DNA of 64,000 nucleotides from Amoebophrya sp. A120 (Eukaryota; Protista; Dinoflagellata): the NCBI GenBank assembly GCA_905178155.1, contig CAJINV010000007.1:3738265-3802264 (forward strand), given 5' to 3'. A program made the translations under genes and the position numbers. This document shows positions 27,001-64,000 of the stretch, in pieces (the stretch's first letter is position 1; every line of letters starts with the position of its first letter). Below the pieces are notes generated by a model, which searched no databases, was not told where the DNA came from, and saw only the letters and a list, made by a program, of their open reading frames with translations.

Positions 27001-28584
27001 GTGGTACCACCCAACGCCTACAAGGAAAACTTGATGCGCATGGTGCCCCCGGCGCACATGCTCATTGCCATTTACGAGCTGTTCGGGCAAACCCGGGGCG
27101 GGTACAACTGGCAGCGGTGTAACCTGGGCGGCCCGCCGCAGCTGCTGGAGCAGCTGGCCATGGCAAACCGCCGCAAGTTCATGGGCTGCAAATTCCCCGA
27201 GAAAATCAAGAAACTGCTCATGTTGGGGCCCAAATTCTCCCTGACGAACGTGCGCACCGTCGGGAGACTGGTGGAGAAATTGCCGAAGTTGTTCCTGGAC
27301 GGTGGGAGTGACAGCACAGCTTCTTCGTCCACCTTGTCGGGTGGCGGAACAGGATCGGCGGCAGGACCATCGTCCATCTCTGGCGGCGCAGGAGGCAATG
27401 CTTCCTCGAATAATTGTAGTACGGCAACCGACGAGATGCGGGACTTTTACCGGGCCACGTACGCGAACTACCTTTGTGCGCAGGAGCTTTTCCAATTCGA
27501 CAAGCCGTCCAGGATTTTTGAGGAGGACCGGGAGCGGAACCGGCGGAGAAACGATCCGGAGCACACGAAGATGCAGAAGGGGGCAGCGTGCCGGGAGCTG
27601 GTAAGACTAGTCGGTGGAAGCGCGGGCAAAGAAGCCGAGCTCCTCACAAAGCAGGAGGAGATGAACAAAATGAATGCGGATATTATGGACAGCGGCAGCA
27701 GAAACTCGCCTTCCCCGAAGCGGGCGTCTTCTCCCTCTGGTGCACTCGGAAAGAAGATGAAAACCGCATCACAGTTGTCCCAGGAAGGAACAAACAATAA
27801 AGGGACACCAGCAGCAGCTACTAGCAGTAGTACAACTGCAACTTCGGGTATTAATCTTAAAAAGTTAGACGGCCCAGAGACCGCCAAAGCCATCAGGAAT
27901 TTGGTCATTTTCGGAAAGAAGCCAGCCGATTTTGCGAATGAGGAGAGGAAGAAGGGGAATAAAGCCAAAACGAAACAGCCGAACAAGGAGAGTGCAGCGT
28001 TGTTGACTATACCGAGCGAGGCGCCTACTGTGAGTCATCAGCTCCAGCCCGCGTTGATCGAGTTTATCCCCCTACCGGAATCCCTCTCCGGCCTCCTCGC
28101 GTACACGTGGGAGCACTACTGTTTTTTTGGCAACAAGAAGCCTTCCGAACCCGCGGTGTGTCTTCTGACCGGCCGCGTCATCGGCATGGCGCAGGACTGC
28201 AAGGGCTTTCCCCGCAACTACTTTGGCATGTCGGTGGCGCACCGGCGGAGCATGCAAAACAGCAAAATCGGCGAGGCCACCGCCTACTCCGGGCCGGTCG
28301 GTGCCGGGCACGGGATCTACCTGCTCCCCTACACGGCGAGCGTGTTGGTTACGTGCGAGAACGGGCTGTGCTACCTGTGGGACTACGCGTTTCCCTACAG
28401 CGACATGTTCGGGGAGAACACCCAGCTACGCGGCGCGGGCCACCACTTGAAGCGGATCCTGGAGATGCGGCTGGACCGGCGGAAGTTGGACGCGCTGCGC
28501 CAGATCTACACGTTCGGAGGGTGTCACCAGGAAATCATACGAGTGCAGAACCGGACCATGAAATACTTCCCGAACGCGCTCTGA
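1..28584 (+). CDS. Giant UBR1/UBR2-like N-end-rule E3 ubiquitin ligase, 5' end outside window. Inferred exons: <1-222, 375-2144, 3106-3134, 3419-4429, 4679-5649, 6065-8016, 8321-8738, 8885-9007, 9650-~10410, ~10683-11070, 11339-11382, 11626-13770, 14039-14806, 14921-19194, 19351-22660, 22820-22879, 23147-25049, 25209-28584
   Basis: UBR box (CPAHWGKRSIAFRCLECEYDNNCIICPDCF..HVGH..GGACDCGDAGSWDPKGFCSKH, ~4884-5087). UBR1-type motifs follow in order: HLSVQLLT, SFHILLQR, WIRNG..Q, D..TLQ; RING split by an intron (CCICR..SCNHVAHLECL / EFACPLCRSVCNGLLP); C-terminal PAVCLLTG..GAGHGIYLL..YSDMFGE. Exon joins checked for frame by hand. Confidence 0.9.
223..374 (+). other. Canonical GT-AG intron (UBR gene)
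   Basis: GTAATA...CACCAG; phase 0 join gives ESG|VSGD. Confidence 0.75.
2145..3097. mobile_element. TTA...TAA inverted-repeat insertion, inferred non-canonical intron (~950 bp)
   Basis: Imperfect subterminal IR (cgttagc..ggtgaatttgcagtgaattt..gcatgac vs gtcatgcaaaattcact..attcacc..gctaacg). CGATGGC direct repeat at 2138-2144 and 3099-3105. Removal keeps frame. Confidence 0.65.
3135..3413. mobile_element. IR introner (279 bp), TSD GACAG
   Basis: TATC...GATA ends; IR taaaaacgtcccca..cagagt / actctg..tggggacgttttta; GACAG at 3130-3134 and 3414-3418; excision gives DDDS|DSDGSK. Confidence 0.9.
4430..4678 (+). other. Canonical GT-AG intron (UBR gene)
   Basis: GTATAA...CCCAG; phase 2 join gives LNW|YIYVGPE. 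Confidence 0.8.
5650..6059. mobile_element. Degenerate, enlarged introner with family-A-like ends (410 bp)
   Basis: TATCCGGTGCAAAAGT...ACTTTTGCACAGGATG. TSD decayed (CCAAG/ACGGG), but element + 5 nt removal gives DPQA|QNMVS in frame. A GT(5649)-AG(6069) register is also in frame. Confidence 0.7.
8017..8320 (+). other. Canonical GT-AG intron (alternative GC donor at 8014)
   Basis: GTACAG...TCCCAG; phase 0 join gives IQA|ICQGSL. Confidence 0.75.
8739..8879. mobile_element. Degenerate family-D introner (~141 bp)
   Basis: IR cacccatcttccccaacatccatttt / aaaatggaggatgttggggacgggtg resembles 14807-14915. TSD CAACA/CGATG differs only by transitions. Element + 5 nt removal is in frame. Confidence 0.7.
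9157..9530. mobile_element. 374-bp secondary insertion with (TAC)7 tail, possibly retroposed
   Basis: Interrupts the family-B sequence gccctctcc|gcgta that is intact in the 13771 copy; 637-374 = 263 bp, the family length. Confidence 0.7.
9421..9490. repeat. Tandem repeat, 2 x 35 bp
   Basis: ggtat(c/t)ggcagaggctaaatctgttctaacgccca twice, 1 mismatch. Confidence 0.95.
10409..10682 (+). other. Intron with uncertain, probably non-canonical boundaries
   Basis: AT-rich, stop-containing, CATG-motif-rich gap between two UBR1-like exons in different frames. No AG after the in-frame stop at 10649 and before ~10683 matches the phase of the GT at 10409. Confidence 0.55.
11071..11333. mobile_element. Family-B introner (263 bp), reverse orientation, TSD ATGGT
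   Basis: TATCAACCGCAAAAGTGTCTGGGTCTG...CAGACCCAGACATTTTTGCATTTGATA; excision gives WIRNGMV|MQEQ. Confidence 0.95.
11383..11620. mobile_element. Family-C introner (238 bp), TSD GAAGC
   Basis: TATGGCGTTCTC..GTTACATTCTCAACTGTT / AACAGTTGAGAATGTAAC..GAGAACGCCATA; excision gives DGRK|QEDVLTLQ. Confidence 0.95.
13771..14033. mobile_element. Family-B introner (263 bp), TSD GAGTG
   Basis: TATCAAATGCAAAA...TTTTGCATTTGATA; excision gives EYASG|FGN in frame. Confidence 0.95.
14807..14915. mobile_element. Family-D introner (109 bp), TSD CGCCG, in frame and stop-free
   Basis: TATCCACAGAAA..ACCCATCCACATCCA / TGGATGTGGATGGGT..TTTCTGTGGATA; CGCCG at 14802-14806 and 14916-14920. Confidence 0.92.
19195..19345. 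mobile_element. Family-A introner (151 bp) inside the RING domain, TSD ACTAC/AATAC
   Basis: TATGCAATGCAAAAG...CTTTTGCACAGGATA; excision rebuilds HLECLKNY|LRE..EFACPLCR. Confidence 0.92.
22661..22814. mobile_element. Family-A introner (154 bp), TSD CCACC
   Basis: TATGCATTGCAAAAGTATCGT...ACGATACTTTTGCACAGGATA; frame restored. Confidence 0.95.
22880..23141. mobile_element. Family-B introner (262 bp), TSD CCACC
   Basis: TATGGATTGCAAAAATGTCTGGGTCTGGA...TCCAGACCCAGACA..ACATTTGATA; frame restored. Confidence 0.95.
25050..25203. mobile_element. Family-A introner (154 bp), TSD TACAA
   Basis: TATGCAATGCAAAAGT...ACTTTTGCAATGCATA; excision gives EEYK|TDKQ. Confidence 0.95.
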
Positions 28585-31290: not shown

Positions 31291-34200
31291 ATGGGCAACC
31301 AAGCGTTCCGCGACGGTCTTCTCGGGCCCTGCTTTGCAGGAGACTCCCGGAAGGAAGGCTCCCCGTTTGGCGCCACCTGTTGCGGTCCGGAGGCTGAACA
31401 GCTCGAGCGGGAGCGCCGAGAACTAGCAGAAGCCGTCGCAGAAAGCCGGAAGCAAAGCAAGTATGATAGAGCTTTCAGTGCATCTTGTTTCACTCTATGA
31501 TTGTAGCACAGTCACATGACAAGTGATAGTACATTTATTCTCTGGTGCAAAAATTTGCATTCCGATTTCCGTCACTTGATTCATGAAAAGCAAAGTCCCC
31601 GCCTTTATTTCAATTTCAACAACAGGAAAGACGTCGCCACGAAACCCGGTTCTCCAAAAAGCAGCAAGAAGAGGAAGCTCGTTCGACGCCAACGCACGGG
31701 CGCACCGCCCATCCACTCGTCGAAGCGAAAACTTGTCGGTGGTCGCGCATCGGAATCTTCGGACGCCTCTTCTCTCGACGAGGACGGAGAGGATGCTGGA
31801 TACCCAAGCGCGAAACGAGTGAAATCTTCCTCTAAATCGAAGTCCCCGGCACAGCAGCGGAGTCAACGGGATCTGCTTGCCCCTGGGGAGCAAGACGACT
31901 CCGGTGATGACGAGTCTTTTCTTTTCACCCGGTTCGGCGTCCGACTGCACGTCTTCCTCGTGTTCTGTTTGCTGATTTTGTGGAAGTATTTGGACGAGTC
32001 TGCGCTCTTGACGGTCTTTTTCCTTTTCGTCGGTGTGGGCGGGTTCCGGTTCTATGAGCGGCTGCTCGTGGTCCGTGTGAGGGTAGTGAATTATTTCCGG
32101 AGATTCCGATTGAAGAAGCAGTGGACGAAACTGAAAAAGAAAACGAAGAGTTTGCTCTTTCTACGCGGCGGAAAGAAGGGGGATGGCAAGGATAAGAAGG
32201 ATCTGAAGAAGGTGGGAGCCAATAGCGGGTCATTTTTTCGGGTACAGGATTAATTTCCTTTCCACTTCTCATGATGACCTTTGAAGGTCAAGGCCACTGC
32301 TACACTTGTGTTTTTTTTACACCCGTCCTTACAACATCTAAATCCATAAACAACCCCAGTTCTCCACGTCCTCCAGCGGCACCACCCCCCAGCGCCGCCC
32401 AAGTGGGCAATTCCACAATGCCGATTCTCTGTACGTCCGCAAGCGGAGCCTCGGCGAGACGGGCGCTTCTCCCGAGCGCCCCAGCGCGGCAACGTCCTCC
32501 CCGAGTAGCAGCGCGAAGTCGCAAAAGCCGCTGCAGAGCCAGCAGTCGAGTTCTTCAAGCCTTCTATCGACGAAGAGAAGCCTGCTGCCCGCCCTGACCA
32601 TCACGGGCGCGGATGAGGAAGTGGTGCGGTATTCCGGGATGAGCGCAGCAGGGGATGATGTTGAGCAGGTCGAAGACGTCCCGCCATCTCTCAGCCGCGC
32701 GAAAAACTCTTCCATCTCGTCTCTCGGTCACATCTTCAACAACAATATTGGAGGCAGAAGTATTGACACCATCGCAGCTTCTCCTTCCTCCTCCCCTTCC
32801 GCGGCGGCTCTGATAGACCGCCGTGTCAGCCGGATGCCGTATCTGAGGAAAGAGTCGTTCCTGGTTCGGCATGGGCAGAAATCGATCCCGCCGGTCATGA
32901 TGCCACCGAGTTCCCCCTCGAGCTCCCGCATCGGGTCCGTTGTAGTAGAGCGAGAGCAGCGGGCGCCCACGCCGAGCAAAACGAGTGCCAGCGGTGGGGT
33001 GATAAACATGCTGTGGGATTGGGTATTTGACGATACGAAGGGGAGCGGGCCGGGGGCTATAATCCCTTCGACCCCAAGCTCCTCGCGGTCGCGTTTGTCG
33101 AGAACGCCAACTTCTTCGCGGAGGAAGAAGAGAAGTCAGCGCAAAGATTCGTCTGACAGCACGGATAGCGATGAGGACGCGACAAGTTCCTCTGGAGACG
33201 AGTCAGACTTGGAGTTTGATACCACCTACGCTCGGAAGAAGCAGACGAAGAAAGGCGCCACATCCGCACGCCAGCGGCGGCGCAGTTCTGCAGCGAGCAG
33301 CACGACTAAAGATAAAGCTGCAAAAATGAATCCAACCAAAGCTGCGACGTTCCGACAAGAACGGCAACCAGACAATTCCACCAGCAGCGCCACCTCCTCC
33401 TCCTCTTCGGCCGATGATGCGGACGGCGCGGGGGGTTCTCCGGGCATCATTGACAGGGACGACACAGTGTTTGATCCGCTGAAGGCGTCCACGGCGAGGA
33501 GAGGGGTCCTCTTCGTTGATGAGAATGGGAAGGAAGTGGAAAAGAACTCAAGTACGATTATCCCGATGCCCAGCCCGCACCTCCCGATCGACGTGTGCGT
33601 CGTGATGAAGAACTACGACTGGGGGTTGCGGTACATCATGAACTTCGACCCGATTACGAAGTGCCTGGATTTGGACCAGCCCCTGACCTTCCACTGGTTC
33701 GGCATGAAGGAGCGGATATTCCAAAAGTTGCTCGTCACACCGAGGACAAAAGCTGCTGCGGAGGACGAAGATGATGACAATGACGATGAAACCGCAACGG
33801 CTGATGTGGATCAGCAAATGGATCAGCAGTCCTCCAGTTCTTCGAGTTCACAGTCCACACCGGCCTTGAAGAAAAGAAAAAGACAACTGGATGCAGGTGG
33901 AGCTGCAGTGGCCACTGCGCGTCTCGGAGGAGTCCAGCCGGTGCAGAAAGAGAACAGCTACGAGGTCCGGGAAGACTGTGTCGTTGCCAGTCACGCAACC
34001 GACGTGCTGAATTTGAACAAACAGGGGGTGCCCACGGACACTTTCAGTTACGACGCGGACCTGTTGGATAACCAGTGCGCGCTGCAAGTAAGGCTAAACG
34101 TGATCAAGGACCAGCAGGTGGTGTTTCTGGTGCCCTTAAGAGCGGGGAGAGATCAGCCACAGTTCACGGAAGCGGATTATTTGTCAGGTATGTTTAGTTG

Positions 34201-34550
34201 TGAAGTTGTTTCATCTAGGGGGAGGTGACTGCTCGGGAGATTCAGAATTGAGCGTGATGTGGGCTCGAGGTTGTAAGTACTTGTAGTACGACGTGCACAT
34301 GGTGCACTCTCGATTTTGGTGCTGACACTGCATGACAAACCTCACACTCACAATTCCAAACCACTAAGGTCGCGTAAACCCACGGGTTTTGTACCTGGAA
34401 AAGGAGAAAGTTGGTTTTCCCTCAGAGTCGATCTCGCACGTTTGGGTGGACTTGGATTGGTACTTCGGGTTGCCCAATATTCTTTCGATCAAGATCAACA
34501 TGTACGCCAATGCGCACCGCGTTTGGAGTAGTGAGGAAAGAAAGCGGTGA
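31291..34550 (+). CDS. Hypothetical membrane-anchored protein; exons 31291-31460, 31626-32241, 32360-34187, 34426-34550
   Basis: Three phase-compatible GT-AG introns (31461-31625, 32242-32359, 34188-34425). Starts MGNQ with nearby cysteines; hydrophobic pair LHVFLVFCLLILW / ALLTVFFLFVGVGGF. No domain recognised. Confidence 0.75.
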
Positions 34551-35009
34551 TGGAAAATCAAAATGGAAAGTGCCGCCGCGTCGCATCGTGGCATGGAGGA
34601 GATGAGAAGTCGTGGATCAGGTGGGGTAATGAGTATTGGCGTGGCTGTGCAAGAAACTACGCGACTCCGTCCAAAGTCATCGTGAAAGCATTTCACCTGA
34701 ACGAACCTCGATCCGGTTTCTAGAGGCAGGGGCAGTAATATGTAGGATAATTTTACGAGATCGAGGCGGAGATTGCTCTTTGTGAGGTCTGACGTCCTCG
34801 AATGTCATGGCTACTTGGCTTTCTGTAAGATTTGAAAACGGACAAACGCTAGAAAAGAGAAATGTACGCCATCAATTGTGAAAAATTTCATCACTCCTGT
34901 AGTGCCAGCTTAGGCATTGAAAGTCAAGTGCTGTGAGGATGTTGAAGATAAGTTGTTCGCTCTTTTCGTTGAAGTTGGTGTCGCGCAGGCTTTGTTCGTT
35001 TAACTTCAA

Positions 35010-37035
35010 GACAGCGCGCCAAGAAGGGCGCCCCAGCATAGGGGCGCGCTGTCGGAACGACGCGGAGGACTTGCGCGCGGCTTCCGGGGCTTCGTAGCGT
35101 GCGAACGCCCCCGGAGTTGCGCAGCCGGGGGGTTACGGCGATCCACTATGATGAAGGAGCTCCCGCGGCAGATTTTGGATCGCTGAAAAGGCTTGCCCCA
35201 AGAAAGAAATGCCAGGGCGGGGCTGACGTAGTTCCGGCTTGTTTTTTGTTTCCGAGCTTGCCGAGGGTGGGGAGAGGCCGCCGGGGGCGGGCGTCGCTCG
35301 GGCAGAGAGGTAGCGCGATGCTGCGACGACGTGAATCGGAGGCGTGGGCGCCGATGTGTTGTCTAAGCTTGCTAGCGCCGGCGCCTCGTCGATGCTCAGT
35401 TGGCCGGGCGTATTGCGCCGGGCACTCGTTTCGCACGTTGGCCCCCGACCACGCCGCGCGGAGACAGAAGCCCAGGCGGGCTGCCCAGGGCAATTGGCGC
35501 GCTATCTTGAAGCACTTCCGGGGCACGCCTTGCGTTGCGTTCGGCGACACTCTCCCAGTCGTTCAAACGTGGTGGCTCTCCAGTTGGTAGCCCACTTTAG
35601 TGCTTTCCTCGTGTATGTGCTCCGCGGCGACTTGATTGCGGAGACCCAGGGAGGCCGAGGCGGGTCGCGGAGACTTGCAGCCCAAAGACTCTGGCCGCGT
35701 GGCGGATCGCTCGGCAAGGGGGCGAGCGCGTTGCCGGCGCGCCCTTGTCCGGTTGGGGCTGCCGCATTCGGTTCGGGAGGTGAAGCGGCGACGCCATTTG
35801 CGGCGAGCCTATGGCAAGTGGGCGGGCGGGGGGCCTACTGCCTACGGGGGCCGGAGTGTGTGTCCTCGGCGCGGTCACGCACCCGCGCCCCGCCGGCCTA
35901 GTCCGTGTTGCGCCGGTTGGCCGCCCCTGCTCCGCTGTTGGCCTGCTTCCCTTCAAGCATGCAGGCAGGCGACCCACATCGGGGCGGGCCGCGCCAGCCC
36001 CCGGAAGTGGCCCCCACCCATTGCAGCTGAGACGCTGGCGGCGCCGCTTGTGGTGGAGGCGGCGCGGCTCGCCTTCTGTCCTTCGGCGCGTGGGAGGGCC
36101 TTTGCCCCAGAACGTGCTTGCTTTCGTTGCCGACACAGGGGCGGCGCACTTACGTAGGGCCGGCTCCCGCGCTGATCTGTCTTGCGCAGTTTCTTCCCGC
36201 TGGCGTGCCTTGCTTGGTCGATAAAGGCTGCAGCGCTTGCATTTCAAAAAAAGCTAGTGCGTCGCACCAGCTTAACTTGGTTGCCATTGCGTGCCACTCT
36301 GCTCCTGTTCGGTTTGTGCGTCGGCCCTTCGTCCTGTAGTATGTAGTGAGGTCACCGAACGGTTCTAGCCGGGGAGTTTTTTTGCCACCGACCCAGACAG
36401 CAAAACCGACGACAGTTTTCAAGCGGGCGGAAGTGTTTTTACACAAAAAAAATCTCCACTTATCAAGCGGCCCTGGCTGACCTGGCACCGAATCGCCAGC
36501 GGATTCTATCGGTCGCCGCTTGAAAAACGACGCAGAGGAGCGCCCAAAGGCGGCGCCCTTCTGAGGCGCCCACCGCCTTAGTTTCTGGCGGTTTGGGGCG
36601 CCCAAAAAGCAGCGCGAAAAAAACGCGCCCAAAATCAGAACAGCGAAACAGCATGGCACGGCCGCGATTTCGGAGCATTTTGGGCGGCCGCGAAAGCGGC
36701 CGCATTTTCGCCGGTTTCAGAGCCTGGGAAGCTTTGCAAAAAGCGCCGGCTAGAAAAATAAAAACGCAAAAGAGCAAAAGCGCGCCAGACGCGCAAAGCC
36801 AATCCGCATGCTATGGGCCCGATTTGTTTTCGCTTTTTGGGCGCCCCCCGTGGCACCCAGATCGGCCCCATAGCATGGGCGTTGGCTTTCGGAAAGGAAT
36901 ATCGGAAATTTGCTAAAATTTGTGACGTTTATCAAGTGGCCGCCATACCGTGCGGCCTAACGTTACTCACGGCGGTATGGCGAGCCCAGAAAAAGCAAAG
37001 CGACGGCCAAAACGCCCGCGACGTCACTACTTCCG
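35010..37035. repeat. GC-rich intergenic block, probable non-coding repeat
   Basis: Begins with hairpin gacagcgcgcc...ggcgcgctgtc (35010-35053); many GC palindromes; no credible ORF. Confidence 0.35.
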
Positions 37036-37414
37036 CCCCGGCGGCTATACTTGGTACTAGATGAACTGCAGGCATCGATGAGCATCACACGCCCGATTAG
37101 TGCGAGCTTGTTGCTCCTGTGGCCGTGTATGGATTGCCCGGTAGCTTCCGCGTGCGCAAGTGCTCTGTGTCTGTACCTATCCACAGAGAGATTGCTCGCC
37201 TACTCTCCGACGATTTCTTTTCCTTCTGCAGTTCTGCATGGTGCATGATTCATTTTTGGTGACGATTGTCCGCATGCCATACTAACTTCAAGGGAAGCGT
37301 GCTCGTCTTTTCTTGCTGTTGCGCGATAAGTCATCAGCATCCCCACGTCCGTGTGAAGAACACGACCAAAGATGCACCGAGCACCAATAGCAATATAATT
37401 AAAGCCCTACAGCC

Positions 37415-40400
37415 ATGAGCATGACCTCCCGCCAATTGCAAAGGTACCCCTTGCGCGACGCGGTTGCCCGCGAAGCGCTCTGCCTCGATGGCAGCGTCCC
37501 GCAGTACTACTACCTCCAAGGGAACACCACTTCCCAAAACTCCAAGGTCGTCCTCTACTTCATGCACGGTGGTTTTTGCGGCCGAACTCTGCAGGAATGC
37601 GTCGAACTGTCCATGCCCTACTACTCCACAATCAGCCTGCCCCCGACCGTCGACGGCTACCACTTGCTCTCCCCGTTCGAGTCCGAAAACCCGCATTTCT
37701 ATGGCTACGAGAAAATCCTGATCGACTACTGCAGCGGGGACACCTACAGTTTGAACAGCAGCACGACGTACACACCGGCCTCACCGAGTTATAATGGGCA
37801 ACAAGGTGCACCTTCTAACACCGTTCCCGTCCACTTCCGCGGCGCGAATATTGTGAAGTGTTTCATCGAGGACCTCCGCGACGGCTTTCTCTTCAACCCT
37901 GCGAATAGTAGTTCGAGCCAAACGCCCCCACTCTCTCCCTCGCTCACCGACATTTTGATTTCCGGCTCGTCCGCGGGGGGACTGGGCGTCATGGGCCATG
38001 GCTGGCGGTTCCAGACCCTCTTTCCCACCGCGAATATTCGGGCGGTGATCGACAGCTCGCAATTCTTCTCCCTTGGCGGGGAAAAGCAAATGATGGACTT
38101 CCTCACCACCTACAACATCTCTGGCGGGACGGGCTGCGAGCTGGACCCTGCCGGGCCGCAGTGCTGCTTCTACGCACACTGCATGACGGCGCACCGAAGC
38201 GGGGGTTTAGCCGCGTACTACACAATTCCGACGCTTTGGGTGCAGAGCAAGTACGACTTCTACTCCACCGCGTCTGAAGTCACTTTCGCCGGACAAACCA
38301 GCGGGGACAGTAGTAGCAGTTCGAATTCAGCACATGGCGAAGAGGATAGTCCTGCAACATTGTCCGCCACGGGGCATTTGCTCCACTACATGGCAGTGGC
38401 GGGCAGAGTGGAGACGCTGAACAAGCAGCTGATCCACGCCCATCCTGGCTCCGCCGCGGTTCTGTCCACCTGCGCCGAGCACGTCTTGCTTGCCCCAACG
38501 ACGCTGAAGTTCAAGTTTTACCAGTACGATTATGCTGGGGATGAGTTGCTCGCGGGACAAGCCGATCCGGCGAGCGTTGTGCATGGGCCGGGGGTGTTCA
38601 GTGCGAAGAAGGTACTTGTTTCTACTTTCCCCGTATGCTATTTGCAACATATTACGGACAGGCAGATGAAAAAACTCGGGCGCCAAGATATTTGCTGCTT
38701 CTTTCCTACTTTGAGCAGGAGGACTCTAGTACCTTCTATTTCTGCAAATTTTATTTATCGCGTGGTCAAATAAATTACCCAAGGTAATCGAGCTTGGCCA
38801 AGTGACCAACCCAGTTTCCTCGTCCTCCGATATCTCACTCGCAGTGGAGATCAACGCGGGGTTACTGAGAAGAGCAAACCACATCAACAACAAACCTCTA
38901 ATGGACTACGTCTCCCAGTGGGCTGCTTCCGCCGACGGCGTTATTGAAAACGAGGAAAAGTTGACTCAGAGACCCGCCTTCGCCTTCAACAGTCTGGATG
39001 AACGCTGTGAATCCAAGCTGCAGATGAAATTTGTCGGTATGGGGAACGAGCAGAGTATTCTCCACACGATCGACGAGGAGGTCTTCCCGATTGTTTTACT
39101 CACCTCCATGGCGTTGATACTAATCGTCGCAGTTTATTTCTGGTTCCAGCGATTGCGGCTGAAATTACTGGCGACCGTGCACGTGAATGTCGCTGGGAAG
39201 ATGGGAGTGGGCAGTGGTGGAAAGAGTGCCTTTGACGAAGACGGAACAACCGGCCGCGCTGGTATAATTGCTGACGATGAGCAAGATCAATCCAAAGACG
39301 CTGAAGCGGCCGCTAACGCAGCGTTTGCGCTGCAGGTTTTGCAACAACGCAGACAACGAGTGGAGCAGGCAGCGGCGTCGGGGAAGACGAAGTGGGGAAT
39401 TTTTTTGCCATCGAAGAACAGAGAGAAGAACGTGAAGGAGACGAGCGGCTTCGAGATTTTGCTGTCGAAGGAATTCATTATCGGTGGATCTAATACTTCT
39501 GAAGCCGACTTTTCGCTGGTGTACGCGGGGGCGGGGAGTGGTATCGACGTTGGAACCTCCTCCAGCCTCTCTTCTTCCGGTGTGGACATCGACGCAGCTG
39601 CTGGGCTGGTGAGTCAGCCAGAGCAAATGTTGACACCGCTCAGGAAATTCCGGATTCACGTTCTGCGGGCACTGTTGAAGTACAAAATGGAGGTGCAAGA
39701 GAGGAAAGGAAAGAAAAGGACTTCGAAAACGAAATTCCAATTGTCGTCCTCCAAAGACAAAGCGGTCGACGCCCAAATGGTGAACATTACCATCTTGGAG
39801 GACGGCATCCGACGGCACAGCAAAGACCGAGCGGGATCAAAGGCGAGTAAGCGCAGCGGCGGTGATCGTGATGTTGGGAAGACTTTGCTGAAAGATGAAG
39901 GCGAAACGTTCGGCGCCGGTGTAGGACAAACCGAAAAAAGCAAGGAGCCAGCATCTGAAAAATCTGAAATCCAACGTAGTGAAGAGGATCATGAACAAGA
40001 AGCACTAGCCCCCGCCGTAGAACAAGTACAGTCCAGCTCTTTCATCGAGAACCTGCCCTGCATGATGCTCCAGAACGTCACTTACCAAATCGGGAAGTCC
40101 CACTTCCTCCTCGCAAACGTGAACTGCGTTTTCCGCTACGGTCGCATGATCGCTTTGATGGGCGGTCTCCGGGAAGTCCACTTTATGCAAACTAGCCTCC
40201 GACCGCCAATTTTCCGGGCACTACTCCGGGCTGATCACCTTAGACGGCATGCCGATGCACTTGATCCCCAATCGAACCGCGAAAATCGCGTATGTTAGGC
40301 AGTTCCCGACCTGCGGGCCGAGCGAGTGCACGGTGATCGAAGCTTTGCTACTGTACGCGTACAAGGCGGGGCTGGACATCGATTTGAGTCAGGTGAGGTT

Positions 40401-42664
40401 AAGTGAAGTGATCTTGGAACGGTTTTTGGACGGAAATAAGATGAAAAAGGGGGGAGCTGCGATGAACAAAGCAAAACTGAAAGAGATGCTGGCGAACTTG
40501 GAACGGAGATTTTCCTCGCTAGGGACGCCTGCGGCGTCTGAAAAACCGGGCGATGCTGCGTCAAGTGGCTCGCCGGATGAAGCCACAGATGCGGATGCGG
40601 TTTTGAAGATGAAAAAGAAATCCCAGGCCACTTCGAACCTGTTCGCGAAACTGCAGACCATTGTGAAGGATCTGAACATGGGTTGGTTTTTGCATCGACG
40701 AATTTCCGACTTGTCGGGCGGACAGAAAAAGCTGCTGTCCGTGGCGCAAGCGCTCATTTGCGAACCAGGAATTATCTTTCTGGACGAGCCGACTTCCGGT
40801 ACGTTTGTGTCGTTTTTTTTTTGTGCTAGAGCGTAGCAGTAGGCGGAGTCTGTTGATATTGTCATCGAGGATTTGATATAATGCGAAGTCACTAGTTCCA
40901 GTCTTGCTCTTGGACATAGACTGAGTGCCACTTCAAGTGTATGACGCAAAAACAAATCAATTCCTCATCGAAATCTCAGGTCTCGACGCAATGACGGCGG
41001 AAACCTTGATGCTGGCTTTGTCTAACGTCACCTGGAAGCAGAAGTGCTGCATGGTGATCGTGATTCACCAACCGTCCGCTTTGGTTTACAGTCTGTTCGA
41101 CGATCTCGTCCTGCTGTGCCGCGGAAAAGTAATCTACTCCGGGCCCCGGGAATTTGCCGACGAAGCGTTGGATGCGCTGGACTTGAAATTGAAGAAGAAA
41201 CACGGGGAGATGGTGGAAGATGAAACTGTCGGACAGGTGTTGAACAAGACAAACACAAACAGCGTCGAAAATAATGTAGAACAAAAAGGAGATGAGGTCC
41301 TCAACGCTGTTGACAAACCACTTGAAGCTCTTGCAGAAGAAGCTGACCACGCTCTGCCCACGACCTGCAACTCTGATTTGACGTTAGCGAAAGCCATGAA
41401 CATGTTTCAGGCGAAAAATCGAAAATGGGACATGCTCCGCCACGTGCTTTTCGTTCCCCGAGCCCCCTCCGCTGACAAATTCATCACGAACGAATTGAAA
41501 GAAATGATGGCGTGCGGTTCCGTTGTCCAAGATGGCGCCAGCACTGGTGTTGAAAACAGCAATGCCAAAAAGGTGATAAAACCGTCCTTCAAGCGCGCTA
41601 TCGACGGCGCAGACCCGGCCCCGGCGAAGTCGGCTCTGTTGTTGGAGCTTTTCGCCTACAACGAGCTCTACCTGTCCAACACTTTACCGCTCGTCGCTTT
41701 ACCGCTCGGCGCGGTCGTCGTCTGGGGCTTTCTGGAATTCTCGAGTGCGAAGCACGATGCGGCGAAGTGCATGCTGGAGGTGTACGTGGTCGGGTTTGCG
41801 GTGTTGAACATCCTACTGCCGAACGTCTTTGCGCATTTGAACTGTAACCAAGACGGGCTGCAAGACCGGATTTTCAAGTCCACCGACATGTTCTGGGTGG
41901 TCGCCTTCTTCTGCCAGCTGTGCTCGGTGGTGATCTCCTTGATCATGGGCAGTTTCTCGCTGTTCGCCTTCTTACTCCCGACGCAATCCATGACCAACTG
42001 CACGTGGTTTGAGCACGTGTTTGTCTGCTACCTGGTGAGCAGCTTCATTAGCCTGTTGGTGCAGCTGTTTCTCTACCAGGCGCGGGGACACGAGGACGCG
42101 AACAAAATGGCCTCGGTGTTCACGCAGTTAGCGGTCTTCACAGCGGCGCTGTCCCTGTTCTCCGGCTTCACGATAACGTTAGACGAAGCCTCCTGGCTCC
42201 GCCCCTTGATGTTTGTATCGCCGCCTTTCTGGGCGCAGAAGAAACTGGTGACAATGGGTTTTTTAGACGAAAGTTACAACTGCGAAAACGTCGACTGTTT
42301 GTTGAACTCCGGCAACGCGTGGATAGCGATGCTTTACGGCGGGCCGGAGGGTCAGGAGTGGACGTATTTGGTGCTGACGATGTTCTGTCTTGGGACGTTA
42401 GTCTTTTCGCGTTTCGTGTGGTACTTGAAGATGGGAACGCCGGCGGTGGTAGCGCTGGGAACGACGAAGAAAGGGAAAGGAACTGGATATGGATTCGCGG
42501 CTGCGGGTGCTACTAAGCAGGGTAGTGCTGCTGCCAGTTCTGGATCATCATCTTCGAAGGACGTCATCGCGTTGTTTCCCTTTGTGCAGACGAGCAGTTT
42601 TACCGGGTTATTGGAAAAGGTGAAAAAACAAGCGACGTTGGAGGAGGAGGGGGAGGAGGGGTGA
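37415..42664 (+). CDS. Notum/pectin-acetylesterase domain fused to an ABCG-type half transporter; exons 37415-38611, 38784-40798 (frameshift ~40167), 40980-42664; an upstream signal-peptide exon is possible
   Basis: Esterase motifs ALCLDGS, YFMHGGFC, NPHF, YCSGD, HFRG, SGSSAGGLG. One TM helix, then ABC motifs (IALMG / SGKST, LSGGQ, FLDEPTSG|LD, IHQPS..FDDLVLL..G..IYSGP) and a C-terminal multi-pass region. GT-AG introns 38612-38783 and 40799-40979 are phase-compatible. Confidence 0.8.
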
Positions 42665-43394
42665 CCCGTATTGAAAATGGTCTGACGGATCCAGAGATTG
42701 CCCATCTTGAAACTCCACCTATCTAAAATCTATACTTTATTTTCATGTCGACGCGATCCCTTGAGTTTATCTTTGCGATGGAAAAGTTTTATCCGTCGTT
42801 CTTTTTCTTGTAGGTGTTTCTTCCGTGGTGCAAAACTGCGAAAATTCAATCTACTCGCTAGCAGGCAAGAGCAAGCTGCAAAAGCTTCACAACGTAATTC
42901 CCAAAGTAACGTAGTCAGTTCAGTTTAGCTTTAGTACGATGCCCAAAGAAGATAGGGCAAGAAGTAAGAATCGTTTTGTTACTCTCAGTCAAAGTATTGC
43001 ATGCCTCCTACTTCATTGCGGAAAAATAAACGTGTCATCTTTGTTTCTTGTTTCATCTGGTGCCTCAGATTGACAATGTCACCGTGACTCGCGAGGGTTG
43101 AACGAATTCCATTTCCTTTGTTTCCATCACACGAAGAAGGCGGCAAAATATTATGCTTAACGCTCGAGCCTGAACCGCGCCAGGGGAATGCGACAGAATC
43201 TGTTCGCCATTTGAGCTGTTTCAGCTTTTTGATCAACTTCAGATGATTCTTCTAGCACGAGCACAACGCGTTATGATCATCGCTGAAGAAAAGATGTATT
43301 ATCTTGGTTTTGCAGATAGCCACCGATACCGCCCACGCTCCTAGCATTCGAGTTCGACGCCGTGCTATTACAACAACTCCGGCGCTCGTCACCT

Positions 43395-46099
43395 ATGTCC
43401 GGTTTGTTCACACCATGGCGTCCGTGCACCGTGATGATCCGCGGCCCCGAGTCAGGCAAATTTGTGGAAGCTTTGCCAGACGGGAATCTCGCGGCCGCCG
43501 CCTCTGCCGGCGGGACCGCTTTCTCCTTCGAAGACGGTCGCACGACGTATGGCGTTCTCAAACGTTACATTCTCAACTGTTCCATGAAATTTGTCATGCA
43601 AGAACGGCAAAAGTGAAAGGGAAAAGATTGGGCCTTTTGCATTACAGGTTTGGAGCAGATTATAATGCTATCTACCGCGTCGAGAAGTTGTCATGCGGAG
43701 AAGGCTTGATCGTGTGAAGAGCGATAGTGTTTTTGCATGACAAATCATGTAACAGTTGAGAATGTAACATTTGAGAACGCCATACGACGCTGACAGGCTC
43801 GGGCGTGGTGTTCGGTACGATTACTGCTACACAGCGACAGGCAGCAAACGTCGACCAAAAAGTGGCTGTTCAAGAATCGAGTGCCAGCGGGTCAGAATTT
43901 GTCCCGTCCACCGGCATTGCCCATTTTTCGCTGTTTCAGCCTTTCCTACGCAGTGTGGCTACGAATGGTGAGAGCCATGTGGACAAACCAGATGAGCAGC
44001 ATGATGCCCAGACCGATTTTGAGCATGTACTCTTGCCAGAAACGGAAGTATTTGTCAAAGTTCAACATCAAGAAGCAGCGGATGGTCGGAGCGAAAACTT
44101 GATCCAAAGCACAAACCAGTCTGCAGCATCTCAATTTCACATGGTGAAAGTTCGGCCGACGCGAATTTTGCACGCAGGGAATGCGCAACAAGAGTTTATG
44201 AGGCACGCAGGGCCTTGCAAAATGTCCCTTGATGGAACAAGTGGTGCTGCCATTGCTTCCGAAGGGAGTGAGGACGCCTGGCTTTCTGTGACGGAGCGCA
44301 CGCAGCTGGCGAAGGTTCCCGTGTGTTGCATTGCGGCGGCTAGTGGTCTTGGATCTCCGTTGACCAGCAACGCCGGTATTCGTGACGGCACCTTGTTCCA
44401 CCCAGCGTTTCTCTTCGTCGAGTTTGAGGCGAACAACAAACCAACAGAGGTTGGAGCGCCTGATGCGAATGTCGGAGATGAGCCGCCAGGTGCAAATCTT
44501 CTGGCAGCAGGAGGTGGCGGCACGGTTCTACATGAACATGATCGAAGCCATAACCAATACCGCCACACAGCAAGAAGCGTAATTCCCACGGGCAGCCAAG
44601 TTCTCCTGCAAGCCGGTGCGTATGGGCACACGAGCCTCTTTGCGAATTTGAAAATCCGGTCTTCCATCGCGAACAGGTCTGATTTCATGTACTTGCTGGA
44701 TGCAGTGACGCACGAGGGTATGGCGGGCGGGGCTGTGTCTGTTCGTCGAAGAACTAGCGGAGATGAGCAGCATGAGGATAGGCTAATTGGGCTGCTACTG
44801 CCTCCACTGAAAGTTGGAACGATCGCTGATGGGAGCGGGGCAGGAACTGCTGGGTCGCCTGGAACAAGTGATGCTTTTTCCTTGGCTGTGGCACTGACAA
44901 GTGCCGATGCTGGAGGTAATGGAGACAGGAGCTTGAGGAGCAAAATGAAACTGGAAGCCGTGATGACATGTAGCGGGAATGAGATGATGGAGACACTAAC
45001 CACAAGCACATTAGAGGTTCACAATCTTCAACCCGAGCGGTCATTGAAAACGACCGACCCTTTCTTCCGCCGCAGCGTGGCTCGACTCGTTCACCCAGAC
45101 CGTGGCACTTGGGGCACAGCGGTCGTTCTGACGACAAAACCAAGAGCTTTTTTCCTGACCTGTGCGCACGTTGCGCGCGACACGAGGTTCATGCGTGTGC
45201 AGCTGCCCCCGGCTCAGGGGATGGATTCGTATGTGAAACGCACAAGTGCCGAGGCCGACCTGCTACAGCGCCACACAGCATTCGTAACGATCCGCAAAGT
45301 CTGGGATGGATTCACGAGTGGCTCTGGGATGGACGCCGCATTGCTTGTTGTAGACAGCACTGCGCAACAAAAGCTGGTAGAGGAATGCTTCGAAGAGGTA
45401 CCCTGGGTGACTGATGAAACAAAAATGCCCCTGAGCAGAAAAGACGGCTCCGATAGAACAACGGAATGCGCCGCCGTCGGCTTTCCTGTCTTCGAGGACC
45501 AGAGCTTGTTCCAAAATTTTCAACCGACTGTCACCAAGGGCCTTGTGTCGTCAGTGAAGCTTGGAAACAAAACGGTTATGCTCCGAAGTACCGCCGCAGT
45601 GCATAACGGAAATTCCGGCGGAGCCTTGGTTTTGCCAGGAAGAGGACTGATAGGGCTGCTCGTCATGAACATTCAACGCGGAGGAGCACCAGCAATCCCT
45701 GATAGCTCAGCGGACGCGGAACAAGATGAACATGATGCGAGTGCATCACGAAAGAGCGAGGCAGAGGAAGGCAAAGACTCGTTATCGTCGCCGCAGTATT
45801 ACCCACACTTAAACTTCAGCATTCCCGTCTGGCAAAAGCTCTCGCCGATCTATCACTTTTGCAAGAATTTGAAAAAAAAACACCTGTTTGAGTTCACGTT
45901 TTTTAATAGAATTGAACCGATGACACAAATCGAAAAGCAGTTGTGGCTGCTTGACGAGAATGCTTCAGCGGGTTTGACACTAGAGGATGGACAATTGCAA
46001 ATGAAAGACGTTTCCAAACTAGAGCAGCGCGCTGCGTATGCTAGGACAGTTCTGAATATTTTCACGAATGAGAGCCGAGCGGCAAGGGCCAGACTGTAG
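43395..46099 (+). CDS. DEG15/TYSND1-like peroxisomal processing serine protease; exons 43395-43547, 43790-46099
   Basis: N-terminal VMIRGP..GRTT|LTGSGVV; trypsin-like LTCAHV, DAALL, TAAVHNGNSGGAL; PHLNFSIP; C-terminal PTS1 ARL. Confidence 0.85.
43548..43784. mobile_element. Family-C introner (237 bp), TSD CGACG
   Basis: About 33-bp near-perfect TIR TATGGCGTTCTCAAA(C/T)GTTACATTCTCAACTGTT; homologous throughout to 11383-11620. Confidence 0.95.
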
Positions 46100-47708: not shown

Positions 47709-48798
47709 AAACCTTTAAAAGCTATGACTTAAGTACTTACTACAAACATTTACCTTGACTACCAAAACAAATTAAAGATGTAACAAGCGATCGAAATGAA
47801 ATTGAAAAGCAAGGCGGCTTGTCTTCAGAGAAAGATCATATCACGGCGAAAAGCCTCAGGCTATCGTACAGATTTAATAGTTATGTAAAAAACTCATCCA
47901 CACCGACCCACCCCTTGACGAACGTTGTAATAAGATACGTACATCAATAAGGAGCAAGCGATTAAAACCGTGCATTCTACTTCACCTGAAGCGATATCTT
48001 GACAAAACGCGCATCTCACAAAATTCATCAATAAATGCGAATTTACTTCTCTTAGTGTGGGCCTCCGCTTCAACCAAGCTGCAGCTCCAACCAAGCTGCA
48101 TCTTCGACGAGAACGAGTTTTGCACACACGAACGGACCCCACTTTTAACTCTCTGCGCAATACCCCCGACAGGGTAGATGATGATGATGATTCGACTATC
48201 GCTGCGCCTCTATCTCGGGCTTGACTTTTGAACACAAAATTATGTACCTGTTTGTGAAGCATGGAAATGGATTTTGCAGTGCTATACATAGGAATATGAT
48301 ACGCCATGATCAGTAGTTGGTGAAAGTCAAGCCCTCCATTTCTTGTGTGTTTGCGTATCGATGGCGAGTTGACAAAAACGCATTGCACTTTCGGGTTTTT
48401 TCGTCGTATTGCGTTTGTATGTATTTATAAATGAGTGGCTTCTACTATTTGTCGGTCTTCTTCTCCTCCCGTGTGTACAAATTTTGTATTTGTACGGAGA
48501 TTTCACAAGCCGAAGCACCATGCGAGCTTGCTTTCGATGACCCCGTGCCCATCTCTGAGATATTCCCATACTCTAGCGAAAAGAGTGAAACATGGTCATG
48601 GGATTGCATATCTTATCAGTGCTGCGCCTGTGTCTGTGCGTCATTTGATTCTGGTGTGGTGACTGTGCGTTCTCCGCCCGTCCAGTGAATACAGGAACAG
48701 CACGCTCGTCAAGGGAATACAGCAACATCCAGTTCTTGTATATTACATTAAGCCTATTTTTGGTATCGCCGATCTTGTGATCTTCTTTTTCACATAAG

Positions 48799-50787
48799 AT
48801 GAGTTCAGTGTCTGTGTCTGCTTGCCCCGAGAAGCTGGAAAGATCTTCTTCTCCAAAATTTTTAGTGGAACCCTCGACATCGTCGTGTTTCTCCTGGTTC
48901 GTTGAATCGGCGAAGCGGTCTCTACTCTGCGGTGCCGCCTCCTCTTCCGGTTCAGGCACCACGATGAAAAGTTCGAGTTACGCTACGGTGACCACAAACA
49001 CCTCATGCTGCAGCTCGAGCGGGTCAGCCGTTTCTCGAAAGAGAGAAATCGATGCGGCAATTTATTACGATGGCAAGACGTGCAGGGACAGGGGTGCTGC
49101 AACAAGTATATCCGATAAGACCCACCTCTTCACTCTCCGTCAGCAATTCTTTGCCAAAAAGCTCTCCGTTAGCTATGCGAACACCAACCCGCTCTGGATT
49201 ATTAGGGGAGAGAAGCAGTACCTGTTCGATGAAAAAGGGACGAAGTACCTCGACACGAGGAACAATGTCGCGCACGTCGGACACAGCCACCCGCGGGTTG
49301 TGAACGCCGTTTGCGAGCAGATGAAAGTGTTGAACACGAACACGAGGTATCTGCATGAGAACATGTGTCGGTTGGCGGAGAAATTGCTTGCGTACAGCAA
49401 TGCAAACCAAGAGCAGACGTCAAACGCAAATCCTCCTTTCGACAAAGTTTTCTTCGTGAATTCCGGCTCCGAAGCGAACGACCTGGCCTTGCGGTTGGTG
49501 GAAGCGTATCATGCGAGAATGAGAGCTGCAGTGAAGAACTGTGAAGACCAGAAGTCACCAGTGCAACTCACTTTGACCAGCGGAAGCTCAGCCGCGGCCA
49601 TGAAAACCGATTACATCACGGTTGAAAACGGTTACCACGGACATACGAAGTCTGTGGTCGACGTTTCGCCGTACAAATTTCTAGAGCAAAAATCCAACAT
49701 CCACGTCCTCGCCCAGCCGAGCGATCTAGCGAAAACGCAGAAGAGTTTGCAGCAGCTGCGGTCGATTCTATTCGGCGTGAAAGGCATGAAAATTGCGGCG
49801 ATGTTCATCGAGAGCGGTATGTCGGTGGGCGGTGTGATTCTCCCCCCAGATTCGTACCTCCGCGAGGTGCAACGGATGCTCAAAGAGAAGAGCGCGCTTC
49901 TGGTCATGGACGAGGTGCAAGTTGGGCTAGGCAGGTATGGAGACGCGTTCTGGGCGTGGCAAAGCAGTGCTTGCGAAGCAGCTACTGGCACTGAGACGAT
50001 GTCCGAACGACAACCCAACGAGAACTGTGCGACAACGATGACGAATTTTCCCCCGGCGACGTCCGCAATACCAATACCACAATTCTGTCCCGACATTATC
50101 ACCTGCGGCAAGCCGATGGGGAATGGTATGCCTTTGGCTTGCGTCATCACAAGGCAGGAAATCGCGGACTCGTTCGAAAAGGAGTACTTCAACACGTTTG
50201 GTGGGAACCCAGTGTGCTGTGCTGCGGGGTTGGCGGTACTGGAGACTCTGGAAGAGGAAAACTTGATGGAAAACGCAAGAATTGTCGGCGCGTATTTGCG
50301 CAAAATCGCATTAGAGCGGTTGACGGAAGCTGGTCTTCAAGCCACGAGCGGAATGATCGACGAGAGTGACGACCCGAACAGGCAACTAAGCAGGCCACAA
50401 ATCTTTCTCTCCGAAGTCCGGGGCAAGGGTTTGTTCGTCGGCCTGGAATTTGTGCTGCAGCGACCACTAGGAACAGCAGCACGAAAAAATATTCAAGCTA
50501 GCAGGAAAGTAACAACCGTAACCGAACCTGCGACCGCGGCCACAAGTGCGCTGTGTGCCGCGTTGGTTCGGGATTGGCAAATTCTTACGAGCATCGACGG
50601 TCCGGATGATAATGTGCTGGTGGTAAAGCCGCCAATGTGTTTTTCGCGGGAGAACTGCGACTACCTTGTAACCGCAATCGCCTCCGTGTTACAAGAGATG
50701 AATGAAGAGCTCGAAGATGGCCGTGGGGAAAATTCGAGTTTGCTCAACGTGGGTCTTGGTTCTGTCGTAGGAAACAGACCTACGTGA
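48799..50787 (+). CDS. Class-III PLP enzyme, ETNPPL/PHYKPL (AGXT2L)-like phospho-lyase
   Basis: YLDTRNNVAHVGHSHP, NTNTRYLH, FVNSGSEANDLALRL, YHGHT, DEVQVGLGR, PDIITCGKPMGNG, EYFNTFGGNPV. Uninterrupted ORF; true start may be downstream. Confidence 0.92.
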   Translation: MSSVSVSACPEKLERSSSPKFLVEPSTSSCFSWFVESAKRSLLCGAASSSGSGTTMKSSSYATVTTNTSCCSSSGSAVSRKREIDAAIYYDGKTCRDRGAATSISDKTHLFTLRQQFFAKKLSVSYANTNPLWIIRGEKQYLFDEKGTKYLDTRNNVAHVGHSHPRVVNAVCEQMKVLNTNTRYLHENMCRLAEKLLAYSNANQEQTSNANPPFDKVFFVNSGSEANDLALRLVEAYHARMRAAVKNCEDQKSPVQLTLTSGSSAAAMKTDYITVENGYHGHTKSVVDVSPYKFLEQKSNIHVLAQPSDLAKTQKSLQQLRSILFGVKGMKIAAMFIESGMSVGGVILPPDSYLREVQRMLKEKSALLVMDEVQVGLGRYGDAFWAWQSSACEAATGTETMSERQPNENCATTMTNFPPATSAIPIPQFCPDIITCGKPMGNGMPLACVITRQEIADSFEKEYFNTFGGNPVCCAAGLAVLETLEEENLMENARIVGAYLRKIALERLTEAGLQATSGMIDESDDPNRQLSRPQIFLSEVRGKGLFVGLEFVLQRPLGTAARKNIQASRKVTTVTEPATAATSALCAALVRDWQILTSIDGPDDNVLVVKPPMCFSRENCDYLVTAIASVLQEMNEELEDGRGENSSLLNVGLGSVVGNRPT

Positions 50788-63500: not shown

Positions 63501-64000
63501 AAAACAGGTGGCAAAATTCAGCAAAAAGTGGTTTTGCGACTTGAAGAAGAAAAAGAAAGCTGAAAAGATAAAGGAAAAAAAACAGCACAAAGGTCAAGCA
63601 ATGCAATCTGAAGGACCATCTGTTGGCGCAAGAAGGACCGTAGGTGTCCGCGACACAGCAGCTACTGGTGGAACGACAACCGCGACTAGAATCGCACGAG
63701 GCGCAACCCCTGCGAAGAAGAACGAAGACAACAGCAAGACCAGCCCACTTTCTAACAGCGACGAGAGCGATGCGTCCTCCGACACCGACTCCATTTCCTT
63801 TCTCAGCGACGCGTCCTCGTCTTTTTTGGAAGAAGAGGAGCTTTTTGAACGTGGAGACGAAGAACGTGATAGAGGCACGCGTCAACCCGATTCTGATTCT
63901 GACTCCTCTAGTGAAGAGGACGAAATCAATGATCCTCATGCGGCAGCTGGAGATAGAGGTACTAAAGCACCGACCAACGTTCCCTATTTCCCCGCCGTCG
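51580..64000 (+). CDS. ZNFX1/Upf1-like superfamily-1 helicase, 3' end outside window; exons 51580-53462, 53623-59290, 59444-60080, 61946->64000
   Basis: ZNFX1-type PTVSEL..YMETQVRLFRED, LRYGNMVYLS, YYPAYGPVLKVL, then LDRFQKRAIHHMLTNRLAIIQGAPGTGKS and LVVTYKNLALD..LVRIG. CCCH finger at ~56168-56227. Start uncertain; a further exon near 51247-51339 is possible. Confidence 0.88.
53463..53617. mobile_element. Family-A introner (155 bp), reverse orientation, TSD AACCT
   Basis: TATCCTGTGCAAAAGTATC...GATACTTTTGCAATTCATA; excision gives FDNL|SHK. Confidence 0.95.
59291..59438. mobile_element. Family-A introner (148 bp), TSD TGGGG
   Basis: TATGAATTGCAAAAGTATCGTACTCGTATA...TATACGAGTACGATACTTCTGCACAGGATA; excision gives KPLG|KDKE. 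Confidence 0.95.
60081..61940. mobile_element. 1,860-bp non-autonomous fold-back element (TTAG...CTAA), TSD TTTTT, inside the helicase CDS
   Basis: 225-bp near-perfect TIR (60081-60305 / 61716-61940). Diverged arms extend to ~60800 / ~61215. Element + TTTTT removal gives EPGF|FSQGYN, open through Walker A. Confidence 0.93.
60956..61058. repeat. Short GGGGGTGCT repeats in the fold-back spacer
   Basis: Four copies of ggggg(g)tgct, three followed by T runs. Confidence 0.75.

Follow-up and report, generated by a model that had tools for sequence, protein, structure and literature searches.

The forward-strand interval 37415..42664 in a 64,000-nucleotide (nt) stretch of the Amoebophrya sp. A120 genome (contig CAJINV010000007.1; the whole stretch is called the window below) raises the question of whether a Notum/pectin-acetylesterase (PAE) domain, an additional membrane helix, and an ABCG half transporter can be encoded by a single gene and, if so, what such a protein would do. 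An earlier interpretation made from the letters alone, the sequence-only reading, had taken the interval as one fusion and had proposed an external deacylase coupled to an ABCG transporter, possibly at the host interface. We found that the esterase exon and the transporter exons are one gene. On balance, we lean toward the view that this three-exon gene belongs to a family of export-and-clip esterase-ABCG proteins and that the window's copy was recently broken in Walker A, so that it would specify only a membrane-anchored esterase of 903 amino acids (aa).

A Spliced Gene Joins the Esterase to the Transporter

We compared the locus with sequencing contigs, of which 8 of the 11 runs gave matching ones; X1 is a DNA contig, and X3 to X6 are contig sets of one sample that we guess to be RNA. 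The parts of the gene, including its nucleotide-binding domain (NBD) and transmembrane domain (TMD), are as follows.

37415..38611, plus strand: exon 1, Notum/PAE alpha/beta-hydrolase domain, 399 codons (Pfam, PDB, Foldseek)
38612..38783, plus strand: intron 1, GT-AG, phase 0, 172 nt, with a 6-nt direct repeat spanning both ends (sequence; spliced X4 contig)
38784..40798, plus strand: exon 2, with the end of the ectodomain, a single transmembrane helix, a long charged linker (predicted cytosolic), most of the NBD, and the frame break
39081..39146, plus strand: extra N-terminal transmembrane helix, TM0, in the interval between esterase and NBD (hydropathy peak 2.6)
40152..40185, plus strand: broken Walker A, with the frame shift at 40167 (sequence; same reading in X1, X3, X4, and X5)
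40296..40298, plus strand: premature stop TAG of the spliced message, giving a 903-aa product without the ATPase, 502 nt upstream of the intron 2 junction
40711..40731, plus strand: intact ABC signature LSGGQKK, in the post-break frame
40771..40987, plus strand: Walker B and D-loop (IIFLDEPTS/GLD), interrupted by intron 2
40799..40979, plus strand: intron 2, GT-AG, 181 nt (spliced joint in X3 and X6 contigs)
40980..42664, plus strand: exon 3, with the H-loop (41060-41074), the end of the NBD, the ABCG-type TMD (~41666-42427), and the stop codon

The sequence-only reading had placed a phase-0 GT-AG intron between the esterase and the transmembrane exon and had suggested cDNA across 38611/38784 as a check; the spliced joint is present in one X4 contig (depth 3.8, the shorter flank measuring 37 nt). 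It had also named two separate transcripts as the outcome that would speak against a fusion, and the intron 1 joint instead unites the exons.

Downstream of the esterase, the proposed series of transmembrane helix, NBD, and TMD holds in its order, which is that of ABCG half transporters. A hydropathy peak precedes the NBD here and in 7/7 full-length relatives, ABC_tran matched at E 1.5e-15, and the post-break frame retains LSGGQ, the FLDEPT of Walker B, and the IHQP of the H-loop. The end of the NBD in exon 3 matched the family with an hhalign probability of 97%, and ABC2_membrane matched the TMD at E 0.0011, a score that falls short of the Pfam cut-off. Structure prediction, another suggested check, gave a clear Notum fold for the esterase (below) and a poor model of the TMD (predicted local distance difference test [pLDDT] 50, template modeling score ~0.25-0.3), although 12/12 Foldseek matches of the latter at E<=0.001 were ABCG2 or ABCG5/8. 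ABCG1, ABCG2, ABCG5/8, and plant ABCG25, which provided the top sequence and fold matches, share the NBD-before-TMD order, the signature, Walker B, and the H-loop, but half-size ABCGs lack the esterase domain, TM0, and the long inserts of the fusion. The window copy differs from them further in its broken Walker A.

The Esterase Head Retains a Predicted Active Site

Exon 1 matched the Pfam family PAE (PF03283) at E 1.9e-28, with 100.1 bits against a curated cut-off of 26.6; PAE was its only Pfam family, and the first part of exon 2 held none. By sequence, exon 1 matched Notum in the PDB (E 3e-6), and its predicted structure (pLDDT 73.9) had Notum 4uz6 as the top Foldseek match (E 4.6e-16, template modeling score 0.57). 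Every listed match was Notum, at 16-19% identity across the fold match. Alignment placed the following residues.

37565..37576, plus strand: oxyanion loop HGGF (G52-G53; alignment to Notum G126-G127-W128, column counts)
37964..37981, plus strand: nucleophile elbow GSSAGG, Ser186 (alignment)
38255..38257, plus strand: predicted catalytic Asp281 (role by alignment)
38480..38482, plus strand: predicted catalytic His356 (role by alignment)

Passages of PMC8172013 describe Notum as having a Ser232-Asp340-His389 triad, a Gly-Gly-Trp oxyanion loop, and a palmitoleate pocket. By alignment, exon 1 contains the corresponding Ser-Asp-His set (S186, D281, H356) and the GG oxyanion loop, and the intact GSSAG motif of the sequence-only reading is borne out. 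In their fold, GGx oxyanion loop, GSSAGG elbow, Asp, and His, Notum, a palmitoleoyl-protein carboxylesterase, and the plant pectin acetylesterases (PF03283) resemble the window domain, but they are stand-alone secreted enzymes, whereas the window domain is fused. Phe replaces Notum Trp128 in exon 1, and Gly is found at this position in 25/33 fused relatives. The pocket thus differs, the window esterase lacks the Trp128-lined palmitoleate pocket of Notum proper, and Wnt specificity is not implied.

The Transporter Half Is Broken in Walker A

The interval 37415-42664 is not one reading frame, because the frame breaks at 40167; the sequence-only reading missed this break as well as the second intron (40799-40979) and did not mention that ATG 37415 is followed by no signal peptide. 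The exon 2 frame reaches ...ALMGG, and after a shift by one base (40167-40168) the ATPase resumes with SGKSTL..., giving a P-loop 5 nt (two residues) shorter than the family motif GxSGxGK[ST]. The in-frame, intact Walker A expected of an ABCG half transporter is therefore missing from the window copy. The break is crossed with the window's letters by contigs of X1, X3 (39939-40547), X4 (40118-40463), and X5 (39831-40248), and since these read identically, it is no assembly slip. One X5 contig (depth 4.1) carries an A inserted after 39933, which is probably an error and does not restore the frame. Splicing around the break was considered and rejected, given that three contigs are unspliced across it and that splicing cannot supply the missing residues.

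We regard it as extremely unlikely that the locus holds two separate genes or that the break is an assembly error. The lack of a whole-gene contig and the failure of a profile to recognize the exon 2 ectodomain tail would fit such an explanation, but the spliced joint of intron 1, the same domain order in many intact relatives, and the presence of the break in RNA-type contigs from an independent study all argue against it.

Using a codon model trained on nine other open reading frames (ORFs) of the window, we obtained a score of 0.22 after the break, compared with 0.19-0.20 upstream. The 770 codons after the break contain no stop, although one should arise, on expectation, with ~24 random point changes (1% divergence); the break therefore looks recent. 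It is likely a recent loss-of-function deletion. As written, the window copy would yield no full transporter, and its transport half would be dead; it is a natural null of the pump half that seems to have arisen recently.

Two other fates of the message can be weighed on the same evidence. A programmed frameshift at 40167 could in principle produce the full-length transporter, given that no stop interrupts the coding-like downstream frame and that RNA and DNA have the same sequence. We nevertheless consider it very unlikely: the resulting P-loop would be two (+1) or one (-2) residues short, while 42/42 relatives have the full loop; the same codon context occurs 20 times as GGT-C and twice as GGT-CTC inside long ORFs, where it is read normally; and we recognized no slippery site. 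Alternatively, the truncated 903-aa product might be useful in itself, as a surface esterase tethered by its transmembrane helix that has dropped the pump. Nothing of the triad or the Cys set, which lie upstream of the break, has been lost, and splicing of the message persists. Even so, we find this improbable. The post-break codons stay coding-like with all ABC motifs kept, which would have given a new role little time to arise; the stop 502 nt ahead of a splice junction may trigger decay; and a signal peptide is not evident after ATG 37415. The favored account of the window copy remains a recently broken member of a transporter family.

Intact Fusions in Sponges, Corals, and a Diatom

Searched with HMMER, exon 1 had 892 matches at E<=0.001, of which 150 were listed. 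We scanned 41 with Pfam, namely all 40 listed matches of >=500 aa and a single shorter one; of these 41, 11 have ABC_tran alongside PAE. A profile built from 14 PAE-ABC_tran sequences then gave 112 matches, 31 with both Pfam domains; many of the 112 stop shortly past Walker A, as exon-limited gene calls would. Word-based searches with the window exons for longer relatives gave 1 and 6 unrelated matches and no fusion, whereas HMMER found them. The complete order PAE, ABC_tran, and ABC2_membrane, with ABC2_membrane above its cut-off, was present in the following organisms.

Sponges: Oscarella lobularis (two genes) and Halichondria panicea
Corals: Oculina patagonica (two) and Pocillopora verrucosa
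Diatom: Corethron pennatum

These full-length fusions, with Oscarella XP_065837240.1 as one intact example, carry database names such as "uncharacterized," "hypothetical," or "ABCG1-like," and a sponge fusion searched against the PDB had ABCG proteins as its top matches and matched Notum as well. Walker A is complete in 42/42 fused sequences (near-duplicates included), and the triad is kept in nearly all fused relatives (Ser 39/40, Asp 40/40, His 39/40). We predict that the family esterase is active, with a pocket unlike that of Notum. A 50-aa fragment labeled Amoebophrya sp. A25 is 61% identical to exon 1.

Two observations concern individual proteins. The fused protein P0123 has Asp at the nucleophile position and is a probable pseudo-esterase. 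P0011, P0013, P0034, P0055, P0081, and P0084 are long proteins in which at least two stretches match PAE and no further Pfam family is present; one of these multi-PAE proteins is from the sponge Sycon and one is from Mastigamoeba.

Ancestry of the Fusion

The family ectodomain profile matched the window at E 1e-52. We compared 59 esterase domains in a quick PAE tree without bootstrap, in which a branch with 96% support in the Shimodaira-Hasegawa-like approximate likelihood-ratio test (SH-aLRT) separated 22 stand-alone enzymes from the window and all 18 fused rows. The fused side also takes in 6 partial rows and 12 rows labeled stand-alone; of these 12, only P0228 was traced to a cluster holding a full-length fusion (Pocillopora). 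In an NBD tree of 26 rows, 7 fused rows formed a group with 95% support, and the window and two others had no supported position. These results are compatible with a single origin of the PAE-transmembrane-ABCG fusion.

Headed ABCGs are already known. Plant "long" half ABCGs of the ABCG24/ABCG28 type have an N-terminal ectodomain and an extra helix, with heads that are reported to be non-catalytic or Cys-rich. In fungi, the ABC-G group VII protein Adp1p of yeast (YCR011C) is described in PMC2848647 as having an ectodomain with epidermal growth factor (EGF) repeats, a transmembrane segment, an NBD, and a TMD, and as having an "enigmatic" function. Adp1p and the PAE-ABCG fusion are alike in layout: both have a soluble ectodomain, a transmembrane segment, one NBD, and then the ABCG TMD, but the head of Adp1p holds EGF repeats, while the fusion carries a Notum/PAE hydrolase whose triad is conserved.

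The sequence-only reading had named a common and already described architecture as a second outcome that would count against it. It does occur beyond the window, in sponges, corals, and a diatom, but a search of titles and the starts of abstracts, with coverage short on subscription papers, supplements, and InterPro architecture tables, found no paper on a PAE/Notum-ABCG fusion. PMC3091767 mentions PF03283 and PF00005 in unrelated sentences. A spliced gene joining Notum/PAE, a transmembrane helix, and an ABCG is thus apparently an undescribed variant of the headed ABCGs across distant eukaryotes, and it probably represents a subfamily of Adp1-type ABCGs, so far undescribed, whose head is catalytic. 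Because the head is an enzyme whose active site can be read, its substrate is open to direct tests, and the Notum/PAE family extends beyond secreted enzymes, since sponges and corals have a Notum-like domain joined to a pump.

Topology and Possible Function

The position of ATG 37415 corresponds to the start of the mature chains in relatives. A hydrophobic ORF lies upstream, starting at 37078, and we saw no splice joining it to exon 1. Hydrophobic N-termini are present in 9/15 relatives with a long enough N-terminus; neither P0010, the nearest relative, nor the protein of the diatom has a signal at its start, and these two may be partial gene calls. The conserved Cys set is fully retained in the window esterase, which suggests an oxidizing compartment, and by analogy with its family the esterase of the window copy may lie outside. 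The same upstream region contains a likely repeated transcribed element at 36800-37221, where X3 contig depth is 38-43 including diverged copies (five T>C), with a 32-nt hairpin at 36795-36889 and no Rfam match; an Rfam scan of 34000-44000 found nothing.

Around the domains, splice joints, break, and intact relatives described above, we inferred the topology, dimerization, transport, and hydrolysis of the family from what is known of ABCG transporters and Notum. Given the Cys set and the signal-like N-termini of many relatives, the esterase head would occupy a lumen or the cell exterior and the NBD would be cytosolic, and TM0, between the two, would leave the head facing outward above the pump exit. 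The protein would dimerize as other half-size ABCGs do. ATP would power the push of a hydrophobic acyl ester, the putative substrate, to the outer leaflet, where the tethered Ser-Asp-His head would hydrolyze it, releasing the product and making transport one-way. An external deacylase coupled to an ABCG, as first proposed, remains the best prediction for the family. Its placement at the host interface is not needed, because intact forms are carried by free-living sponges, corals, and a diatom, and these carriers speak against a role specific to parasites. More tentatively, the family may be an old "export-and-cleave" ABCG with its own Notum-type deacylase, a single early origin spanning animals, diatoms, and alveolates, and a pump-to-enzyme hand-over of lipid esters; in sponges and corals, it could even provide a second, membrane-bound acyl-removal route for lipid-modified signals.

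The direction of transport could also be the reverse. In a scavenging role, the esterase would free acyl groups or sterols from outside esters of prey, host, or matrix, and the ABCG would carry the product inward. The conserved active site of the head would suit this role, carriers include filter feeders, and the window genome looks like that of a parasite; passages of PMC2848647 also report that the fungal ABCGs Aus1 and Pdr11 are required for sterol uptake. We nonetheless judge scavenging to be unlikely, given that a photosynthetic diatom also carries the fusion. Moreover, the majority of characterized ABCGs are exporters.

Somewhat less likely still, in our estimation, is an independent head, in which the family esterase acts in a Notum-like manner on surface substrates of its own (acylated proteins or glycans) and the ABCG is an anchor or partner with no hand-over. 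The head is tethered via one helix and a long, variable linker, the Notum substrate is an extracellular acyl-protein according to passages of PMC8172013, and other ABCGs, such as Adp1, have non-catalytic heads. However, animals, a diatom, and an alveolate have all kept the fusion with both sites intact, which favors coupling.

Several points weigh against the favored account, that of an export-and-clip family with a recently broken copy in the window. For the gene model, no single contig covers the whole gene, the intron 1 joint comes from one contig, and our guess that X3 to X6 are RNA comes from the spliced joints alone. X1, which runs unspliced over 37250-41300 with zero differences from the window at depth 43.6, is possibly the source of the assembly itself. 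At the N-terminus, a signal peptide was sought after ATG 37415 and none was found, an in-frame stop lies upstream at 37400-37402, and an X3 contig (37307-37543) is unspliced across the acceptor-like site at 37412, the nearest upstream acceptor. The TMD model is poor, and the exon 2 ectodomain tail did not match the family significantly (profile E 0.06, hhalign 0.1%). With respect to ancestry, the PAE tree is quick, has long branches, and has the 12 "stand-alone" rows on its fused side, and in the NBD tree no supported branch unites the window with the fused clade.

Other Features of the Window

At 9008-9233, 11071-11334, 13771-14033, 19195-19345, 22661-23141, 53463-53566, and 59291-59443, long ORFs of the same strand are separated by repeated elements of ~150-260 nt that end in inverted repeats. 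The ORF-interrupting inverted-repeat elements of the window resemble the introners described for Amoebophrya in passages of PMC7789003. Taken with the fragment labeled Amoebophrya sp. A25, they point to an Amoebophrya-like syndinian, at the level of the genus, as the origin of the window. Another element, at 43543-43789, has 45-nt inverted arms and a 5-nt direct repeat and sits inside a trypsin-like peptidase gene (~43320-46099, Trypsin_2 E 3e-9), with a relative near 11396-11620. The large element at 60081-61940 has 472-nt inverted arms (86%), inner 207-nt arms, and a GC-rich core.

Among the other genes, 14035-28581 is a very long multi-exon gene with PRT6_C at its end (E 2e-9), probably encoding a UBR-type N-degron ligase. 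A class-III aminotransferase is encoded at 48781-50784 (E 4e-59), and an AAA_11 helicase-like ORF occupies 61927-63999 (E 5.5e-11).

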